Shown piece by piece: positions 2,165 to 51,596 of a stretch of DNA of 51,596 nucleotides. Position 1 is the first letter of the stretch; the number at the start of each line of letters is the position of its first letter. The DNA is from a virus (Duplodnaviria; Heunggongvirae; Uroviricota; Caudoviricetes): the IMG/VR virus record IMGVR_UViG_2718218098_000003. One strand, written 5' to 3'. The translations under genes were made by a program, and so were the position numbers. The notes under the pieces were generated by a model. That model was given only the letters and a program-made list of their open reading frames with translations, was not told where the DNA came from and did no database searches.

Positions 2165-2425
2165 TCACGAGGACAGAAGTTTCTCGCAATTAAAATTTAT
2201 CAGCTTTACTTTCTGCTCTCTGGACACGCCTGCTTCTTTTTTCCCTGAGAGCATTTTTTCGCATTCTGATTTCGTTAATTTAGATTTTGAATATCTTGTC
2301 CAGTTAGTAGGAGTGCCACCTTCTTTTTCAATAGTGGCAGTTATTTTATACATGAACACCTCCATTATTATTTCCAGTAGTTCGTTTATTCCATCTTTCG
2401 AGTGCTTCTTTTTCACTTCCACCAT
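2165..2425 (-). CDS. Hypothetical protein (early-left operon)
   Basis: 86-aa ORF between xis and lar-like gene; no recognisable motif; start uncertain. Confidence 0.4.
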   Translation of the reverse strand: MVEVKKKHSKDGINELLEIIMEVFMYKITATIEKEGGTPTNWTRYSKSKLTKSECEKMLSGKKEAGVSREQKVKLINFNCEKLLSS

Positions 2426-15812: not shown

Positions 15813-15899
15813 AAACGGTTTGCGGGAAAAGGAGAGTTAAGTAGAATTGCTGCGGGTGCTTGAGGCTATCTGCCTCAGGCATGAACACCAACGGCAGAT

Positions 15900-15990
15900 A
15901 GAGAAAAGCCCCAGTTAACATTACGCGTCTTGCAGGACGCTTAACATTAATCTGAGGCCCAATCTATGTCTCACAAATGTAGGTTAGCCT
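15900..15990 (-). ncRNA. Candidate Sok-type antisense RNA region (not delimited)
   Basis: Placement inferred from hok/sok architecture; no promoter or terminator resolved. Confidence 0.2.
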
Positions 15991-16022
15991 CTTACGTGCC
16001 GAAAGGCAAGGAGAAGCAGGCT

Positions 16023-16178
16023 ATGAAGCAGCAAAAGGCGATGTTAATCGCCCTGATCGTCATCTGTTTAACCGTCATAGTGACGGCACTGGTAACGAGG
16101 AAAGACCTCTGCGAGGTACGAATCCGAACCGGCCAGACGGAGGTCGCTGTCTTCACAGCTTACGAACCTGAGGAGTAA
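16023..16178 (+). CDS. hok: Hok/Gef-family type I toxin (HokD/RelF-like)
   Basis: 51-aa MKQQKAMLIALIVICLTVIVTALVTRKDLCEVRIRTGQTEVAVFTAYEPEE; SD aaggag; in-frame upstream extension from 15966 (mok-like). Confidence 0.85.
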   Translation: MKQQKAMLIALIVICLTVIVTALVTRKDLCEVRIRTGQTEVAVFTAYEPEE

Positions 16179-19232: not shown

Positions 19233-19307
19233 GGCCCTTTAGCTCAGTGGTGAGAGCGAGCGACTCATAATCGCCAGGTCGCTGGTTCAAATCCAGCAAG
19301 GGCCACC
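19233..19307 (+). tRNA. tRNA-Ile (anticodon CAU, lysidine-type; ileX/ileZ-like)
   Basis: Cloverleaf read by hand; anticodon loop ctCATaa; close to recalled E. coli ileX. Confidence 0.8.
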
Positions 19308-19309
19308 TG

Positions 19310-19386
19310 TCGTCACTAGCTCACCTGGAAAGAGCATCAACCTTCTAAGTTGAGCGTACGAGGTTCGAGTCCTCGGTGGCGGTCCA
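19310..19386 (+). tRNA. tRNA-Arg (anticodon UCU)
   Basis: Anticodon loop ctTCTaa, T-loop ttcgagt, CCA encoded. Confidence 0.65.
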
Positions 19387-19388
19387 GT

Positions 19389-19464
<76 letters not shown>

Positions 19465-19467
19465 TAT

Positions 19468-19542
<75 letters not shown>

Positions 19543-20313
19543 GCATTTGAAACAAGCCTTATTGTATTGCGGCACTGGCGCATTTTTTTATTACGTGGGA
19601 GCAGGTTGTTTTGAAAAAGCATTCTGTTCTCTGGCTATGATTTGAGGCCGGGTGTAGCCTCAGTGCTGATTTTTTACGGCAGCAGAATGGTGCATTATCG
19701 GTGGAGATTTTGTATTTCCTGGCAGGGGCGGTGATGCATCATTTTGGTGTTGTAAAAGCACCGCAGAGGCGTTCCTCAGGGCGAGGGTGGTTTAAATAGT
19801 CGGTTTAGCGGGAAACCACAGTATCCATACAGCACGGAATACTTCGGGAGATACCCGACGCCTCGGTTTACTATAATAAAGACGAAGCATCCTTTGTATT
19901 GACAAACCGCCTGCTTAGACGGTTCTTTTTTGGCTGGTTTATTGTATGCCAAATCATTATTGAAAGGACTGTATTAATAACAAAATCCGAAATAATATGC
20001 CTGCATATTGTTAGTTTTCTTATGCTTTTTGTATATTGCTGCACCGCAGCCCCCCCTGCAACGAAAGTTGTATGATGAATAATTTTTATTTTTTCCTTTT
20101 CCAGTCATCTGAGGATGCTGGCTTCTTTTAGCTCCGGCCCGACAATACGGGGATATCACGTCAGGGGATGAAGGAATTAATTGCGTTGCCGGGGAAGCAT
20201 CGTCAGCTTTTTTAAGATAACTCCTGTGTGTTATGTGCATAAATGCTACAAACTCCACATTTTATGTGGTTGGGAGTTGCCGGGCGCGCAGTGAGTTTGC
20301 TAAGAAAACTCCT

Positions 20314-20415
20314 GCATGGTGAATCCCCCTGTGCGGTGGGGTGATACCATTAACTTTTTTGTCGCCGACAGGTATCACGAACGTTTTGTTCACCGGGAGG
20401 CACCCGGCACCATGC
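20314..20415 (+). other. Structured repeat element copy A (conserved 5' and 3' boxes, variable internal helix)
   Basis: gcatggtgaatccccctgtgcggtgggg...gtgatacc/ggtatcac...caccgggaggcacccggcaccatgc. Confidence 0.6.
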
Positions 20416-20580
20416 ACTTCAATAGATTCTCTCCACATTATTGATATTCTTTCAGAATATCCCACACAGACTTTGTGTAAATGTTAACGAATGTGCGTTT
20501 TATTTGATCTAATCCGCTGTTTGAGCGTTCAAAACAACGGTATATGTAATCCTTTACTATATGACATATTGTGAGGAAAA

Positions 20581-21009: not shown

Positions 21010-21207
21010 TTCTACATCTTTGCAGTAAACAATAATCATAATTGCATGTTTTTTCTGTGGTGGGGTATTTGGCTTCTGTTGCCTGCGATGTATTGTGGAG
21101 CTGGTATCAGCCTGCAGAAAATGCACACAGGTGTGAAGTGTTAAATTCCACACAACTCAGAACGCAGAATGTTGTCCTGCTTGCGGGGAGTTTGTTAAAA
21201 GAGTACT

Positions 21208-21329
21208 GCATGGTGAATCCTCATGAGCGGAGGGGCATAATGACAGATGTTTGGTCGCGTTATCGTATAGGCAAGTTGCGGATTCTGTCTGGTCATTGCA
21301 GAATTCACCGGGAGGCACCCGGCACCATG
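21208..21329 (+). other. Structured repeat element copy B
   Basis: gcatggtgaatcctcatgagcggagggg...aatgac/gtcatt...caccgggaggcacccggcaccatg. Confidence 0.6.
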
Positions 21330-21460
21330 TATTTTCAATATTTTATTGATTATTCTCTTTTTCGGAATACTCTGGTTATGTTTTCCTGTAACTGATAATT
21401 AAATCACATTTTGTGTAAATGTATATTGTCTGAACGGGATAAGTTCAGTATCTTCTGAAT

Positions 21461-21584
21461 GTATGGCGAATCCCCCTGTGCGGCGGGGCGTACTGATTTA
21501 AGTAGTCATCCAAGAATGCAGCTGAATGAAAACGCGCTCCATATTAATCAGTGGTGGAGCACCGGGAGGCACCCGGCGCCATAC
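21461..21584 (+). other. Structured repeat element copy C (compensatory changes in closing helix)
   Basis: gtatggcgaatccccctgtgcggcgggg...actgatt/aatcagt...caccgggaggcacccggcgccatac. Confidence 0.6.
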
Positions 21585-21610
21585 CGATGATGAAAATAAA
21601 TGCGTCCATC

Positions 21611-21636
21611 AGCCCCTCTCCGGAGGGGCTTTTTTA
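21611..21636 (+). terminator. Intrinsic terminator
   Basis: agcccctctccggaggggcttttt. Confidence 0.65.
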
Positions 21637-21641
21637 TGGGC

Positions 21642-45536: not shown

Positions 45537-46136
45537 ATGCGTAAAGTTTGTGCCGCCATTTTGTCCGCAGCCATTTGTCTGGCCGTATCCGGTGCGCCTG
45601 CATGGGCGTCTGAACATCAGTCCACGCTGAGCGCGGGGTATCTTCATGCCCGGACCAACGTTCCCGGCAGTGATGATCTGAACGGGATTAACGTGAAATA
45701 CCGTTATGAGTTTACGGATACGCTGGGGCTGGTGACGTCATTCAGCTATGCAGGAGACAAGAATCGCCAGCTGACCCATTACAGCGATACCCGCTGGCAT
45801 GAAGATTCCGTTCGTAACCGCTGGTTCAGCGTAATGGCGGGGCCGTCTGTGCGCGTGAATGAATGGTTCAGCGCGTATGCGATGGCGGGTGTGGCTTACA
45901 GCCGTGTGTCGACTTTCTCCGGGGATTATCTCCGCGTAACTGACAACAAGGGGAAAACGCACGACGTGCTGACCGGAAGTGATGACGGTCGCCACAGCAA
46001 CACGTCTCTGGCGTGGGGAGCTGGCGTGCAGTTTAACCCGACCGAATCCGTGGCCATTGATATTGCTTATGAAGGCTCCGGCAGTGGCGACTGGCGCACT
46101 GACGGTTTCATCGTGGGTGTCGGTTATAAGTTCTGA
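45537..46136 (+). CDS. lom: Outer-membrane protein Lom (Ail/Lom family)
   Basis: 199 aa, signal peptide, C-terminal AYEGSGSGDWRTDGFIVGVGYKF. Confidence 0.85.
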   Translation: MRKVCAAILSAAICLAVSGAPAWASEHQSTLSAGYLHARTNVPGSDDLNGINVKYRYEFTDTLGLVTSFSYAGDKNRQLTHYSDTRWHEDSVRNRWFSVMAGPSVRVNEWFSAYAMAGVAYSRVSTFSGDYLRVTDNKGKTHDVLTGSDDGRHSNTSLAWGAGVQFNPTESVAIDIAYEGSGSGDWRTDGFIVGVGYKF

Positions 46137-46162
46137 TTAGCCAGGTAACACAGTGTTATGAC

Positions 46163-46189
46163 AGCCCGCCGGTTCAGGCGGGCTTTTTT
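46163..46189 (+). terminator. Intrinsic terminator after lom
   Basis: agcccgccggttcaggcgggctttttt. Confidence 0.65.
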
Positions 46190-46200
46190 GTGGGGTGAAT

Positions 46201-47370
46201 ATGGCAGTAAAGATTTCAGGTGTACTGAAAGACGGTACAGGAAAAGCGGTGCCGGGATGTGTCATCCGGCTGAAGGCAAAACGGACCAGTGCCACAGTGA
46301 TAGTGCATACCGTGGCCTCCTGTGAACCCGGTGATGCCGGTCGCTACAGTATGTCAGTGGAGCCGGGGAATTACAGCGTCATTCTGCAGACAGAAGGGTA
46401 TCCGCCGGTGTATGCCGGAGAGATAACCGTCAGTGAAAAATCCCGTGCAGGGACGCTGAATGAGTTTTTGCTGAATGAAGAAACGGCGGCGGAATATCCC
46501 AGAGCACTGGCAGAGCTGGAGGCCGTTGCTGCAGAAATCCTTGAACGGGCACGCGGGAGTGAATCCCGTGCGGAAGAAGCAGCCCGACGGGCAGAAAATG
46601 CACGGGGGCCGAAGGGGGACAAAGGGAATACGGGACCGCAGGGGCAGCCAGGACCGAAAGGTGACCGGGGTGAGACCGGCCCCAGAGGGGAGCGGGGCAT
46701 GACAGGTGCACAGGGTGTACCGGGACCCAGGGGTGAGCGGGGCGAAAAAGGGGAAAAAGGTGACCCCGGCGGCCCGCAGGGTCCCCGGGGGGACACCGGT
46801 CCGGCGGGGCCACAGGGACCCAGAGGTGATACCGGAGAGCGGGGAGTACCAGGACCTCAGGGGCCGAAAGGCGACGCAGGGCCAAAGGGTGAGCCTGGTC
46901 CGAAAGGCGACACAGGTCCGAAGGGTGAACGGGGACCAAAAGGCGACACAGGTCCGAAGGGTGAACAGGGGCTGAAAGGCGACACCGGTCCGGCAGGGCC
47001 ACGTGGTCCCAGAGGTGATACGGGACCCGCGGGTCCACGTGGGCCAGCTGGCAGTGATAATGCTTACAGCAGGGCAGAGTCGGATGCCCGCTACCGTAAT
47101 ACCGGCGAGGGAGGGATTAATGGCTGGGAGCGGGATACGGCTACAGGGATTATGAGACAGTGGGGTGTGTTTGCCGTTGCAGGTCGTTACGGTAACCAGT
47201 GTCGTTTTCCTGTTCCGTTTCCTCAGGGACCGTGGAATATCCAGCTGACAGTAAAGGACGATTTATCAGCAACCGTGCCGTGCGTGATGAGTATGACAGA
47301 CAGCGGGTTTACCGTTGGCACCATAAATGAATGGTTTGGTGAGGTTTACTGGTATGCAACAGGATGTTAA
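46201..47370 (+). CDS. stf: Side tail fibre protein with collagen-like Gly-X-Y repeats
   Basis: N-terminus [20 protein letters not shown] (stf-type); ~160 aa of GxY triplets ([26 protein letters not shown]...). Confidence 0.8.
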
Positions 47371-47380
47371 AGGAGAGAAC

Positions 47381-47920
47381 ATGGGTAAATATATTTACTC
47401 ACCATCACGTAACCTGTTTTATCCGGTTGCACTGAAGGCGGTTTATGAACACGCCGGTCGCTGGCCGGAGGATGGCAGGGTGGTGGCTGATGAGGTGTAC
47501 CGTGAACAGACGGATGTGGTGACAGGAGAAAATGAAACAGCGGAGATTGCCCGTGAACGCAAGCTGGCAGAAATCAGCCGCTGGCGTGATGAACAGGAGA
47601 ATGCGGGGGTGATATTTGAGTGGCATGGGCACCGCTGGGATGGTGGTAAGGCTGCCCGCAGCCGTCTGTCTCCGGTTACAGCCGTGGCACAGTCGGGAGC
47701 ACTTCCTGAAGGTTTTTTCTGGACGGATGTGGATAACCGGGATGTGAGACTGACGGCGGAAGAACTGGTACAACTGGATGGCGCAATGCTGCAGGCAATG
47801 GTGATGCGGGGTTTTAAAATTCATGAGCGTCAGCGGCAGATGAAAGAGGCTGTTGAGCGTCTGACGGTGACAGAGGAAATTAACCGGTTTGTTGTCGGAT
47901 GGGAGGGAGATGATGAGTAA
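47381..47920 (+). CDS. tfa: Tail fibre assembly protein
   Basis: 179 aa, SD aggag; position after stf. Confidence 0.65.
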   Translation: MGKYIYSPSRNLFYPVALKAVYEHAGRWPEDGRVVADEVYREQTDVVTGENETAEIARERKLAEISRWRDEQENAGVIFEWHGHRWDGGKAARSRLSPVTAVAQSGALPEGFFWTDVDNRDVRLTAEELVQLDGAMLQAMVMRGFKIHERQRQMKEAVERLTVTEEINRFVVGWEGDDE

Positions 47921-48296
47921 ATTTACCACGCCCGCAGTACTGGAGATGCTCGGTGATTACCGCTGGCGGCTGGTTGAACCTTTTGAGTTCTGGCAGACAG
48001 AGCGTCCGGATGATGTGATATATGTACCGGAGGGGTACGTGACAGACCTTGCGAGCGTACCACGTATTCTGTGGTCCGTATTTCCGCCACACGGGCGTTA
48101 TGCCAAAGCGGCGATAATACATGACTGGCTGTACGACAATGCGCTCCGGACAAAGCGCGAAGCGGACAAGATATTTCTCGACGCGATGTGTGTTCTGGGT
48201 GTTCCCCGCTGGCGCAGGGTGCTGATGTATGCTGCCGTCAGGCTGTTTGGTCGGGGTAATTACGGAGAGGTACGGTATAAGCCACTGGAGAAATGA
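47910..48296 (+). CDS. DUF1353-type phage protein
   Basis: 128 aa; family name from memory of similar tail-fibre-adjacent proteins, not verified. Confidence 0.45.
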   Translation: MMSKFTTPAVLEMLGDYRWRLVEPFEFWQTERPDDVIYVPEGYVTDLASVPRILWSVFPPHGRYAKAAIIHDWLYDNALRTKREADKIFLDAMCVLGVPRWRRVLMYAAVRLFGRGNYGEVRYKPLEK

Positions 48297-48298
48297 AT

Positions 48299-48327
48299 AA
48301 AAAAAGCCCCCGCACGATGAACGGGGG
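48299..48327 (-). terminator. Minus-strand intrinsic terminator H1
   Basis: Plus strand aaaaaaagcccccgcacgatgaacggggg. Confidence 0.5.
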
Positions 48328-48417
48328 ATCGCAAAAACACGCCTTTAGGTGATTTATGAGTATACACTCCGGAAAGGGATACTACTGATTCCAAATAAAT
48401 AAAGCAATTAACGGAAT

Positions 48418-48544
48418 GTGAATTATTTAACTGAAACCGAGAAAAGGTTTTTATTTTAAATGTATATTATGATGAGCTAAAAATTAGCATGGTAATTAAA
48501 AGTTTGTAATATTTATAAATGCAATGAAAAGGAGTTGGTTTCGG
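48418..48544. repeat. AT-rich ~130-bp repeat, copy 1
   Basis: gtgaattatttaactgaaaccgagaaaagg...agcatggtaatta...aaaaggagttggtttcgg; ~80% identical to copy 3. Confidence 0.6.
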
Positions 48545-48578
48545 GGAACATCCGCCACGCTGGTATTATACCAGGGCA

Positions 48579-48764
48579 GCGATAATACATGACTGGCTGT
48601 ATGACAATGCGCTGAGGACAAAAGCGGAGGCAGACCGGATATTTCGAGACGCAATGAAGGTCCCGGGTATTCCCCGCTGGCGCAGGATATTGATGTATGC
48701 TGCCATCAGGCTGTTCGGTCGGGGTAATTATGGAGAGGTACGGTATAAGCCACTGGTGAATTGA
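48579..48764 (+). pseudogene. 3' fragment of a second DUF1353-type gene (no start codon)
   Basis: Translates AIIHDWLYDNALRTKAEADRIFRDAMKVPGIPRWRRILMYAAIRLFGRGNYGEVRYKPLVN, about 85% identical to the C-terminus of 47910-48296. Confidence 0.6.
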
Positions 48765-48765
48765 A

Positions 48766-48798
48766 TAAAAAAAGCCCCTGCACGGTGGTGAACAGGGG
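48766..48798 (-). terminator. Minus-strand intrinsic terminator H2
   Basis: Plus strand aaaaaaagcccctgcacggtggtgaacagggg. Confidence 0.5.
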
Positions 48799-48886
48799 TG
48801 CTAATAAAATTACTCTGTAATAACTGCATCTTATAAGGTAAACATCGTTATAGTATAAGGTATGTATAAAAAAAGCAATCGGCATA

Positions 48887-49015
48887 GTGTGAGTTATTTA
48901 AATGAAAATGAGAGATGACTTTAATTTGAATTGAATAATATAGCCGACTAAGAATTAGTCTTTCAATTAAAATGTTGCAATGTTTTTTAATGCAAAAAAG
49001 AACTGGTTTCGGTAA
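48887..49015. repeat. AT-rich ~130-bp repeat, copy 2 (more diverged)
   Basis: gtgtgagttatttaaatgaaaatgag...aactggtttcgg. Confidence 0.5.
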
Positions 49016-49033
49016 GCATCAGGAGAAAAAGGT

Positions 49034-49066
49034 AAAAAAAAGCCCCGCACAGAAAAAAAGAGGGGC
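49034..49066 (-). terminator. Minus-strand intrinsic terminator H3
   Basis: Plus strand aaaaaaaagccccgcacagaaaaaaagaggggc. Confidence 0.45.
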
Positions 49067-49146
49067 TGAGTCAAAATTATTCTGAAATTAATAAGGATAG
49101 TTCGCAAATTATATTACTGAATCTGAGTGAGCAGAGCAATTGTATG

Positions 49147-49277
49147 AGTGTGAATTATTTAACTGGAATCGAGAAAGGATTTTAATTTTAATTACATATT
49201 ATGACGAGCTACCAATTAGCATGGTAATTAATGATGCATGGCATTTTTAAATGCAATAAAAAGGAGTTGGCTCTATG
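49147..49277. repeat. AT-rich ~130-bp repeat, copy 3
   Basis: gtgtgaattatttaactggaatcgagaaagg...agcatggtaatta...aaaaggagttggctctatgg. Confidence 0.6.
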
Positions 49278-49294
49278 GAATGTCAGGAGAAAAA

Positions 49295-49326
49295 TAAAAA
49301 AAGCCCCGTGCAGACTGCACGGGGGG
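49295..49326 (-). terminator. Minus-strand intrinsic terminator H4
   Basis: Plus strand aaaaaaagccccgtgcagactgcacgggggg. Confidence 0.5.
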
Positions 49327-49706
49327 TCAAAAGAAGGCTTGCCCTATGCTATAGGAAGATTGTTGTAGTTTGTCCATGAAGATACAGGGGCAATATTACT
49401 AAAGGTCATGTTAAGAGGCAATCCAAAGAATGAAATTTTATGCCAGGTATGCTCCATGATAATTTAAGTTAAATTAATAAGGTAATTAATATGTTGATAA
49501 TCAATTTAAGACAAAAAAACCATGCAGCAAACGTACTGCATGGGATATCAAATGTAAGAGAGTAGTAATGTAGCGAAAAGATAATACAGGTATTTACAGA
49601 AAAATAAAACAAAGTGAATGCAACGTAGATTAATTAAATGATTTTTTCATCTTTTAACAATAAGAAGGGTGGCGACAGGCTACTGTGAAGTTGAGTGTGT
49701 CCGGAT

Positions 49707-49735
49707 AAAAAAATCCCCGTCAGCCTGCACGGGGA
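49707..49735 (-). terminator. Minus-strand intrinsic terminator H5
   Basis: Plus strand aaaaaaatccccgtcagcctgcacgggga. Confidence 0.45.
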
Positions 49736-49936
49736 TGAAAGTATCAGAAGTTACACCATTTTTTATTATTTATGGAGGTTACCACAAAGCATGTTACTTA
49801 ATGTTTTTTGAGAAGGCAATCACCTGTTCGAAAAAAATAACCTGAGCGCAGGAAATACATGCGAGAGTTATAAATGTCTGACTTCTTTATTTTAATTGAA
49901 ATAATTTGAAGTGAATTTATTAGGTAAATGTCAGCT

Positions 49937-49975
49937 AAAAAAAAAGCCCCATACAGATATGCTCAGTGTATGGGG
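49937..49975 (-). terminator. Minus-strand intrinsic terminator H6
   Basis: Plus strand aaaaaaaaagccccatacagatatgctcagtgtatgggg. Confidence 0.45.
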
Positions 49976-50503
49976 AAATCGGATTATAGAATCAAAAAAG
50001 AGGTTGTGATTTTGACGTATGAATAATACTGAAATTTTTTCACGGAAGAAAGCAAAATCTTCGTAGCGTGGAATGCAAGAAATATTATAAGTGCACAGCA
50101 GTATTCAGGATTAATAAGAATCTCTCGCGTTGGGGCACTTGCCATGCCTGAATTCAGATTGCTAATAATTCACCAGTACTGCCATAAATCGTAAAAAGAA
50201 CCGCAGACACGTCGCATACAGGAACGTGCCACGGCTGGCTGATGGACGTTCGATAGCGCGAGTTTGAATGAAAATCAGCCGGAGGTGATTTTACATAATT
50301 GTTGCGGAATCATTCAATATAGGGATTGCTTATTTCTGCCTGGATTGGTCTGAAATAGTCCCGAAATTTTCTCTAAAAAACTCGAAAAAAATGGTAACTA
50401 ATTGAATGCATTAATATGCAATGGTACGTGTTTGGGATTAAAAGATGAGCGTAATTTTGCTTAACACATTAATTTAAAAAGGGTTTCTTGTTTGTTGACG
50501 AAA

Positions 50504-50530
50504 ACAGGAATCGTGTTCGGTCTCTTTTTA
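50504..50530. repeat. attR core (direct repeat with 578-603)
   Basis: acaggaatcgtgttcggtctcttttta. Confidence 0.6.
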
Positions 50531-50663
50531 TCTGTTAAAAGCCAGAAGCATTTCCTTCGCTGACTTTATAGTCAACCATAACACACACTCTACTGTCTGA
50601 GTCCAGCGTTTTTTAACATTCTTGTTAAGATTATGTGATCTTTAGCGCGGGAGGAAAATATTG

Positions 50664-51320
50664 ATGAAACAGCCTGCGCCCGTTTATCAGAGAATTGCGG
50701 GTCATCAATGGCGACATATCTGGCTTTCTGGCGATATACACGGTTGTCTTGAGCAGTTGCGCCGCAAATTATGGCATTGTCGTTTTGATCCGTGGCGAGA
50801 TTTACTTATCTCAGTAGGAGACGTTATCGATCGTGGGCCGCAAAGTTTACGTTGTCTGCAGTTACTGGAACAACATTGGGTTTGTGCGGTAAGAGGCAAT
50901 CATGAACAGATGGCGATGGATGCGCTGGCATCCCAGCAGATGTCTTTGTGGTTGATGAATGGCGGCGACTGGTTTATTGCGCTGGCAGATAATCAACAGA
51001 AACAAGCGAAAACGGCGCTGGAAAAATGTCAGCATTTGCCCTTTATTCTTGAAGTACACAGTCGTACCGGCAAACATGTTATTGCTCATGCCGATTATCC
51101 AGATGATGTTTATGAATGGCAAAAGGACGTTGATTTGCATCAGGTCTTGTGGAGCCGCTCGCGATTAGGTGAACGCCAAAAAGGGCAGGGAATTACAGGT
51201 GCTGATCATTTCTGGTTTGGTCATACACCGTTGCGACATCGCGTGGATATTGGCAACCTGCATTATATTGATACCGGTGCTGTCTTTGGGGGCGAACTGA
51301 CTCTTGTGCAATTGCAATAA
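50664..51320 (+). CDS. pphA: Serine/threonine protein phosphatase 1 (host)
   Basis: Metallophosphatase motifs GDIHG, GDVIDRG, GNHE; 218 aa; matches recalled PphA; SD gggagg. Confidence 0.8.
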   Translation: MKQPAPVYQRIAGHQWRHIWLSGDIHGCLEQLRRKLWHCRFDPWRDLLISVGDVIDRGPQSLRCLQLLEQHWVCAVRGNHEQMAMDALASQQMSLWLMNGGDWFIALADNQQKQAKTALEKCQHLPFILEVHSRTGKHVIAHADYPDDVYEWQKDVDLHQVLWSRSRLGERQKGQGITGADHFWFGHTPLRHRVDIGNLHYIDTGAVFGGELTLVQLQ

Positions 51321-51596
51321 TTAAAAATCACCATACTCCTGTGCTGGTCGCCAGAAACCATCTATAAAATCCTCAATCGGAAAACAACCGCCATGGCGGA
51401 TCCGTTGATCGCTCATAGAATAAAGACACTGCTGTTCCGTGTTGTAGACATCCACAACAATATCTTCACAACCGCCATCCAGGTAGCAAACAAAAAGTAC
51501 CAGCGCGAACATTTCATCCCCGAAGTGTGGTGCCGTACCGTTAAGTTTAGGAGAGATTTTACAACGGGGGAATAACCAGGACAAATAACCCGCCAT
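51321..51596 (-). CDS. Host hypothetical protein, convergent with pphA; start at or beyond window edge
   Basis: 91-aa ORF running to the last base of the window. Confidence 0.4.
   Translation of the reverse strand: MAGYLSWLFPRCKISPKLNGTAPHFGDEMFALVLFVCYLDGGCEDIVVDVYNTEQQCLYSMSDQRIRHGGCFPIEDFIDGFWRPAQEYGDF

Follow-up and report, generated by a model that had tools for sequence, protein, structure and literature searches.

A putative array of leftward small-RNA cassettes between the tail-fibre module and attR of an Escherichia coli lambdoid prophage

Introduction

What occupies the AT-rich DNA that lies between the tail-fibre genes and the right attachment site (attR) of an Escherichia coli prophage when annotation finds next to nothing there? 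The question is raised by positions 48297-49975 of a viral record of 51,596 nucleotides (IMG/VR IMGVR_UViG_2718218098_000003), the whole of which is referred to here as the window. The window, whose sequence is identical to that of mouse isolates M6-M19, contains a complete lambdoid prophage of E. coli integrated in the sdsR/ryeA small-RNA locus. The stretch between the tail genes and att is known to lambda biologists as the b region. In this prophage it is located between attR and a DUF1353 gene, which closes the tail-fibre module, and the array described below starts at the stop codon of that gene. The GC content falls from ~0.53 in the tail genes to 0.29-0.37 in 48297-49975, the RefSeq annotation of the stretch consists of a DUF1353 pseudogene and nothing more, and several IMG/VR viral contigs stop right at the DUF1353 gene.

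A previous reading of this DNA, made from the sequence alone (the sequence-only reading), had offered two explanations: an array of small RNA genes transcribed leftward, or repeated moron units whose genes had been deleted. Lambdoid morons are autonomous promoter-payload-terminator units inserted between conserved modules (the Juhala/Hendrix concept, cited in PMC4104026). The in silico analysis presented here fits the first explanation best and makes the second less likely. With modest confidence, 48297-49975 is interpreted as an array of small leftward non-coding cassettes, that is, putative small-RNA (sRNA) morons, five of which are paralogous.

Terminators and predicted promoters

Seven strong intrinsic terminators are found in the 1.7 kb of 48297-49975, all of them on the minus strand (Table 1), with stems of 6-10 bp, folding energies of -10 to -17 kcal/mol and runs of 7-9 T. 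The plus strand of the same stretch contains none, and when the hairpins are viewed on that strand the A-run precedes them instead of following them. The remaining ~48 kb of the window hold 13 minus-strand terminator candidates, mostly weaker, and a tool scan returned five terminator-like sites where 1.9 were expected from shuffles. Six of the seven hairpins consist of an A-run and a (G/T)CCCC...GGGG stem, and the one at 49543-49512 has a different stem. The latter had been left uncounted by the sequence-only reading, which correctly recognized the leftward direction of the hairpins but reported only six of them.

Alignment of the units on the minus strand revealed two short blocks common to five of them, RATTGCYY and TAVYAT, separated by 17 non-conserved bases. 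The combined pattern is sigma70-like, with a -35 hexamer TTGCYY, a -10 hexamer TAnnAT and optimal spacing, and by hexamers and spacer the five cassettes carry predicted promoters. RATTGCYY-N17-TAVYAT occurs five times in the 51.6-kb window, always on the minus strand, as compared with 0.02 occurrences expected, although this count is descriptive and not a test because the pattern was derived from these same sites. The -10 end of each site lies 44-67 nt upstream of a terminator hairpin, a distance that is too short for a gene and right for RNAs of 71-91 nt, which argues for small RNAs. In a simple sigma70 position weight matrix (PWM) scan of 48200-50400 the five sites rank 2, 4 and 10-12, and the minus strand holds 20 of the 25 top sites. 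Plus-strand promoter candidates show no conservation between the copies. A CRP half-site (TGTGA) upstream of promoters 1-3 was considered and rejected, as its centre lies ~52 nt from the inferred start, which is not a standard activating position.

Sequence identity between the cassettes amounts to 0.72 in the promoter block (0.59 when shuffled) and 0.74 in the terminator (0.53 when shuffled), as compared with 0.53 in the body, from the -10 hexamer to the hairpin (0.51 when shuffled). Each unit thus consists of a conserved promoter frame, an unrelated body of ~45-65 nt and a conserved terminator frame. The ungapped repeat homology stops at 48379, 48850 and 49111, which is exactly the downstream edge of the -10 hexamer.

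The conserved upstream portion corresponds, on the minus strand, to three AT-rich repeats of ~172 bp each (65-79% identity), which are parts of ~264-bp units that include the terminator; where the unit carries a DUF1353 fragment, tandem-repeat analysis (TRF) gives a period of 468 bp, present twice across 48083-49012. The AT-rich repeats are the promoter/upstream blocks of the cassettes and not separate interleaved elements. They had been described previously as ~130 bp long, which is too short, and as ending without exception in a Shine-Dalgarno (SD)-like aaggag, which holds for copies 1 and 3 but not for copy 2 (aagaac, with aggag 20 nt further on). The aaggag motifs are located upstream of the minus-strand promoters, and on the plus strand no conserved start codon or open reading frame (ORF) follows the motif in the copies or in the diverged E62 lineage described below; the plus-strand motif is probably incidental. 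A plus-strand ORF of 34 aa after copy 3 was discarded, since it is missing from the other copies and from E62.

The nature of the start-less 3' fragment of a DUF1353-type gene had likewise been recognized, but the fragment, placed at 48579-48764, begins ~27 nt farther left. The segment 48551-48787 is 84% identical to 48083-48319, so that the fragment duplicates the DUF1353 gene in its 3' half. It marks a junction, where recombination added a cassette and left the fragment as a scar. A comparable internal DUF1353 3' fragment is present inside the unrelated array of contig L027.

Predicted transcripts and coding potential

The RNA starts used here were set 7 nt past the -10 hexamer and are not mapped. 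In the resulting predicted folds, a mostly open 5' part precedes a U-rich stretch, which leads into the terminator hairpin and the U tail. The 12 nt before the hairpins contain 5-7 U (background 0.37), and the U tails comprise 7-9 residues. A U-rich stretch followed by a hairpin and a U tail of at least ~7 is the sequence signature of an Hfq module, and it is found here as a matter of sequence anatomy only. The predicted products of 71-91 nt would have the anatomy of Hfq-type base-pairing sRNAs; their transcription and their ends, like any dependence on Hfq and any targets, are inferred.

Table 1. Positions of the array elements and of other features in the window (numbering of the whole stretch)
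Feature	Position	Strand	Remarks
sR1 (predicted, ~75 nt)	48298-48372	-	unique 5' body, U-rich GUGUUUUUGCGAU, hairpin 48327-48307, 7 U
sR2 (predicted, ~78 nt)	48766-48843	-	hairpin 48798-48775, 7 U
sR3 (predicted, ~71 nt)	49034-49104	-	weaker terminator: 6-bp GC stem, 13-nt loop, 8 U
sR4 (predicted, ~91 nt)	49296-49386	-	hairpin 49325-49304
sR6 (predicted, ~79 nt)	49706-49784	-	contains ACCUCC; hairpin 49736-49713
Promoter-like site, cassette 1	48379-48409	-	AATTGCTT-N17-TAGTAT (-35 TTGCTT); pattern match; PWM rank 12
Predicted promoter, cassette 2	48880-48850	-	GATTGCTT-N17-TACTAT; in repeat copy 2
Predicted promoter, cassette 3	49141-49111	-	AATTGCTC-N17-TAATAT; in repeat copy 3
Promoter-like site, cassette 4	49393-49423	-	GATTGCCT-N17-TAATAT; pattern match; PWM rank 4
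Promoter-like site, cassette 6	49791-49821	-	GATTGCCT-N17-TAACAT; pattern match; PWM rank 2
Second promoter-like site, unit 1	48495-48466	-	TTACCA-18-CATAAT; in repeat copy 1; promoter scan
Second promoter-like site, unit 2	48966-48937	-	TTGAAA-18-TATATT; promoter scan
Second promoter-like site, unit 3	49227-49198	-	TTACCA-18-CATAAT; promoter scan
Terminator T1	48327-48298	-	
Terminator T2	48798-48766	-	
Terminator T3	~49067-49034	-	
Terminator T4	49325-49295	-	
Terminator T5	49543-49512	-	10-bp stem, 7 U; fold z = -3.96; ends fifth unit
Terminator T6	49736-49705	-	
Terminator T7	49975-49938	-	fold z = -3.44; first leftward terminator coming from attR/attP
AT-rich repeat copy 1	48379-48552		
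AT-rich repeat copy 2	48850-49020		
AT-rich repeat copy 3	49111-49284		
DUF1353 gene, intact	47913-48296	+	RefSeq of the identical M19 locus; ORF list
DUF1353 3' fragment, start-less	48552-48764	+	RefSeq pseudogene missing the N-terminus
attR core	50504-50523		ACAGGAATCGTGTTCGGTCT, purine (r) at base 12; attL partner 578-597, inside the SdsR terminator; sequence
RalA (Rac-type type I antitoxin RNA)	2169-2347	+	Rfam
sok	15854-16028	+	Rfam
STnc100, three copies	20284-20457, 21179-21383, 21434-21641	+	near the late promoter region; Rfam
Four tRNAs (Met, Arg, Thr, Gly)	19233-19542	+	cluster

No ORF of 60 aa or more exists in 48297-49975, as the sequence-only reading had stated and the ORF list confirms; the two longest (59 and 58 aa) both cross terminators. 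In none of the seven units does an ORF of at least 12 aa combine an SD-like motif with a stop codon ahead of the terminator, and no ORF is common to the paralogous units or conserved between lineages. In an Rfam covariance scan of 46000-51596 (E <= 1) no family reached its gathering threshold. The sub-threshold matches concern terminators only, namely NsiR1 (22 bits, threshold 39; 49706-49753, spanning the terminator alone) and anti-hemB (19 bits), and no match was obtained to AgvB (RF02702), AsxR (RF02703), Esr41 (RF02676) or STnc100 (RF02076). Elsewhere in the window the Rfam scan detects RalA, sok, three STnc100 copies, SdsR and RyeA, so the method does find known RNAs.

The array would be completed by two further terminator units, T5 and T7. 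No convincing promoter was found upstream of T5; the sequence there (49545-49612) is conserved in E62. Between 50523 and 49975 there is no minus-strand terminator, which makes T7 the first stop on the int transcript path past attP. In the circular phage T7 may play the part of lambda tI and stop int/pL transcripts; alternatively, it is a candidate terminator of a ~340-nt transcript from the promoter-like site 50317-50288. A minus-strand ORF of 53 aa with a hydrophobic centre (50145-49984) ends just before T7. The M19 and E62 lineages have this ORF intact, but L002, L018 and L020 have it frameshifted, and it is probably decaying or spurious.

Distribution and divergence of the array

The array is rare: of 5,426 complete E. 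coli genomes, 13 carry it, nearly all of them rodent isolates, and a metagenome scan identified three true relatives on contigs (L013, L018 and L020). The array was not found in 50,697 phage records or in the IMG/VR searches, and the GTDB species representatives yielded three chance matches in unrelated phyla and no homologue. Homology among the carriers stops at window position 50297, where the integrase-specific att-arm starts. The junction of unit 2 and terminator 3 (48976-49061) shows weak similarity (73-75%, E 0.5-6) to an unannotated chromosomal site at ~0.45-0.5 Mb in a few dozen genomes; this is probably a chance match between AT-rich, terminator-like sequences.

One of the carriers, integrated at ssrA in the evolved K-12 strain IGC_EcoliInv_1.1 (NZ_CP054665; L021 4001-6001), is the Nef phage; its array is about 96-98% identical to that of the window (L021; L002). 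In the Nef locus, the array is followed by a hypothetical gene, a Panacea-domain gene, a DinI gene and then ssrA. Nef, a temperate phage, has been reported to be active, with transfer in the mouse gut observed within days, and K-12 lysogens of Nef show an unexplained faster growth in intestinal medium, mannose and gluconate (Frazao et al., gut-evolution work of the Gordo laboratory; PMC6731689).

The E62/L013 lineage is 86% identical to the window (14% diverged). It carries a single cassette of the 1-3 type directly after the DUF1353 gene, followed by units 4-7, which indicates that the three-cassette state of the window arose by accretion. Between the lineages the promoter hexamers are intact except for two non-critical -10 positions: the 31-nt promoter of cassette 3 is unchanged in E62 while its flanks vary, the -10 hexamer of cassette 4 becomes TAGCAT, retaining T1, A2, A5 and T6, and the hexamers of cassette 6 are unchanged. 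The T4 stem is kept in E62 by a compensatory change (GTGC/GCAC to GCGC/GCGC), and the stems of T1 and T2 differ by a C-G to T-A exchange. Bodies 4 and 6 differ at approximately one-quarter of their positions between the lineages, and E62 is separated from the window by many indels of 1, 4, 5 or 6 nt, many of which are not divisible by three.

Arrays of unrelated sequence in other prophages

In other prophages whose DUF1353 gene is 75-90% related, unrelated sequence with the same layout occupies the same place. The prophage adjoining zinT in E. coli O126:H45 MIN10 (L024, 1577-2966) has eight same-direction terminators within 1.4 kb after DUF1353, spaced 110-270 bp apart and several of them preceded by good hexamers, while the IMG/VR contigs L027 (4370-6000) and L031 (4364-6200) have seven and nine, respectively; none of the three has a terminator on the other strand. 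Of the 30 segments that separate terminators in the four arrays, 23 have a better top sigma70 score on the sense strand (Wilcoxon p = 9e-5), and in most cases the top site is located 35-85 nt ahead of the hairpin. Some cassettes in these other arrays measure 108-126 bp, which leaves space for a promoter and a short transcript only, so that no gene ever fitted. L024 and L027 have cassettes in common, arranged in a different order. Neither blastn nor an nhmmer profile of the window cassettes detected a sequence relationship among the three array families, and in the L024 array Rfam gives only sub-threshold terminator look-alikes. L025 (1-800) likewise holds unrelated sequence of this architecture behind a DUF1353 gene.

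The content of this position varies among related phages with the same tail module, from a single cassette (E62) or several of them to other cargo such as nleC. In prophages of Shiga toxin-producing E. coli (STEC) at the same sdsR/pphA site (L022, NZ_CP018237, 1803-2789), nleC, a type III effector gene, replaces the array. The STEC prophages share the last ~300 bp before attR (window 50143-50450) at 86% identity, a segment that occurs in most of the 238 matching genomes.

Proposed organization and its weak points

The five cassettes would be built on one frame, in which an AT-rich upstream block and a sigma70-type promoter are followed by a largely unstructured body, a U-rich stretch, a GC-rich hairpin and 7-8 U. 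Like morons, the units have their own predicted promoter and terminator, lie between conserved modules and are atypical in composition. The array would have grown by recombination between related phages, with the DUF1353 3' end and the conserved frames serving as homology. The cassette RNAs would be transcribed from the prophage, and the terminators would insulate the units from each other and from the tail operon, while the variable single-stranded 5' parts could pair in trans with RNAs of the host or of competing phages. Because the cassettes face the late operon convergently and plus-strand transcription is not stopped by the hairpins, late read-through in the lytic cycle would be antisense to every cassette RNA; such read-through may switch the cassette RNAs off or be processed together with them.

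If these RNAs are expressed, each phage would possess 5-9 regulatory RNA genes with unrelated bodies on a common frame and a fast turnover between strains, which would constitute a new layer of lysogenic conversion. A broader proposal, that dense, hypervariable arrays of sRNA cassettes are a general accessory module at the right end of those lambdoid E. coli prophages that form a clade with a DUF4376-DUF1353 tail-fibre end, is tentative and, on present evidence, rather doubtful. Constant frames would then carry interchangeable seed bodies, and cassettes would be gained, lost and shuffled by recombination; the RNAs might reprogramme the lysogen or interfere with rival phages, and might add to the growth advantage of Nef lysogens (PMC6731689).

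Several observations weigh against the interpretation of the stretch as an sRNA array. The start sites were derived from the hexamers alone, and in units 1-3 a second promoter-like site lies in register ~85 nt farther upstream (Table 1), which makes the true 5' ends ambiguous, with RNAs of either ~75 nt or ~160 nt. A generic promoter scan found 10 sites where 8.6 are expected from shuffles in such AT-rich DNA, so the promoter calls depend on positional conservation and strand bias. With fold z-scores of -0.7 to -1.9, sR1-sR4 and sR6 are unremarkable, T5 and T7 fall outside the five-cassette frame, and an array is missing from several DUF1353 prophages, in which the position is empty or taken by other cargo. 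The two diverged lineages are too few to judge selection on the bodies.

The predicted bodies also lack evident partners. Although the 5' bodies are predicted to be largely unpaired, the seed search gave no significant partner in the prophage, in GcvB or SdsR, or among long E. coli and phage matches. Complementarity of the cassettes to the rest of the prophage does not exceed 11 nt, no long match was found in E. coli genomes beyond the 13 carriers and the DUF1353 homologues, the phage collection yielded matches at chance level only (E 2-6), and duplex energies with GcvB or SdsR do not exceed those of shuffles. Mimicry of GcvB was examined for sR4, which has ACAACAA like AgvB-type mimics, but was rejected since the duplex energies are no better than those of shuffles.

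Alternative explanations

The stretch could instead be debris, that is, recombination joints and decayed morons at an exchangeable right end, with terminators that are relics of leftward genes and promoter-like hexamers that are by-products of AT-rich DNA and shared repeat ancestry. Such an origin, which is regarded as unlikely though not negligible, would be in keeping with the DUF1353 pseudogene fragment within the array, the decaying 53-aa ORF adjoining T7, the mosaic divergence between lineages, the rarity and patchiness of the sequence, the unenriched generic promoter scan, and the presence of a real moron, nleC, at this position in STEC phages at the same att site. By-products of base composition and ancestry do not, however, readily explain why the spacing between promoter and terminator is uniform in five paralogues and three unrelated array families, why promoter scores are biased towards the sense strand, why terminator stems are preserved by compensatory changes, or why the homology breaks precisely at the -10 edge, and cassettes of 108-126 bp are too small to have lost a gene. 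The last point, together with the uniform spacing in paralogues and its retention in the 14%-diverged lineage, likewise argues against moron units with deleted genes as put forward in the sequence-only reading. Its other suggestion, leftward small RNA genes, agrees with the conserved predicted promoters located 44-67 nt before five terminators and with a packing that recurs in unrelated arrays.

It is still less probable that the hairpins form a terminator barrier that stops leftward pL/pI-int transcripts across attP or host read-in at attR and thereby shields the tail operon from antisense transcription, the sequence between the hairpins being a spacer. All terminators do point in the same direction, T7 is the first stop that an int transcript would meet past attP, compensatory changes preserve the stems, and lambda has a leftward terminator, tI/sib, in the equivalent place. 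Yet one or two stops would suffice where 7-9 are kept, and L024 and Nef have further genes between the array and attR. Moreover, a barrier leaves unexplained the conserved, well-spaced promoter on the same strand before each terminator, and such promoters would create the very leftward transcription that the barrier should stop. Small-protein or type I toxin-antitoxin (TA) cassettes, each encoding a very short peptide and possibly an antisense RNA, are highly improbable. The tandem units of ~150-470 bp with terminators resemble type I TA arrays, examples of which are the ldr, ibs/sib and zor/orz loci, and a few short ORFs are present. None of the units, however, offers an ORF of even 12 aa that has an SD-like motif and closes ahead of the terminator, the paralogous units lack a common ORF, indels between the lineages are often non-triplet, and no hydrophobic peptide signature was seen.

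Relation to known systems

Tandem arrays of paralogous sRNAs, in which each gene has its own promoter and terminator, include the NsiR1 repeats of Nostoc, LhrC1-5 of Listeria and Qrr1-5 of Vibrio. In these arrays the RNA bodies are conserved and the location is chromosomal. The putative sRNA cassettes of the window resemble them in their head-to-tail arrangement but differ in that the bodies are unrelated, the frames are conserved and the array is phage-borne. As for the terminators, lambda tI/sib lies just beyond attP on the int transcript path, ~200 bp from the att core. T7 occupies a comparable place but is ~530 bp from the att core, and the tI/sib model would explain one hairpin at most, not seven.

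Among prophage sRNAs, the closest likeness is to EcOnc01-03 (AgvB, AsxR) of enterohaemorrhagic E. coli (EHEC), which are short genes at moron sites, convergent with the late operon (Tree et al. 2014; PMC4104026). Both sets belong to lambdoid prophages, have Rho-independent terminators and fall into groups within which the 3' part is conserved while the 5' part varies. However, EcOnc01-03 are located just downstream of PR'/stx, singly or in pairs, and measure 51-60 nt (PMC4104026), whereas the cassettes described here are positioned after the tail-fibre module near attR, in arrays of 5-9, with predicted products of 71-91 nt. Expression and Hfq binding have been demonstrated for the EHEC RNAs (PMC4104026), while the present cassettes are predicted from sequence.

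The Pas sRNAs and STnc100 of prophages in enteropathogenic E. coli (EPEC) and EHEC are accessory, vary between strains in copy number and sequence, and are spread by phage recombination (bioRxiv 10.64898/2026.05.13.724894). PasA, PasC, PasD and STnc100 lie by the Q/lysis genes and PasB lies inside the structural operon (same source); none has been described after the tail-fibre module or as a dense cassette array, and the cassettes give no Rfam match to STnc100. With respect to the classical morons, the cassettes are similar in that their base composition is unlike that of their neighbours, but dissimilar in having a non-coding payload of ~50 nt that is multiplied on a common frame. Literature searches turned up no account of sRNA arrays located after the tail-fibre module. 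The prophage sRNAs described so far rewire host regulation but sit near the Q/lysis genes, singly or in pairs. Since the array is carried at 96% identity by the active temperate phage Nef, a directly testable system is available.

Attachment site and other features of the prophage

The true right end of the prophage is the attR core at 50504-50523. SdsR and RyeA are found at 463-607 (Rfam, above the gathering score) and the int gene at 1811-735 on the minus strand, whereas the host genes pphA, yebW and yebV follow from 50661 onward. The Rfam scan also gave a partial RyeA-like match at 50430-50533, and attR bears a diverged, partial copy of the SdsR/RyeA terminator region that is supplied by the prophage. 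As integration takes place within the SdsR/RyeA terminator, the 3' end of the host sRNA on one side is rebuilt from phage DNA.

The known RNA genes of the prophage that exceed Rfam gathering scores include RalA, sok, three copies of STnc100 and a cluster of four tRNAs (Table 1). Upstream of the DUF1353 gene, a protein with a tail-fibre N-terminal domain (46195-47370, plus strand) contains a long region of collagen-like Gly-X-Y repeats, which makes the GC content peak locally at 0.69 and gives rise to a strong AT skew.

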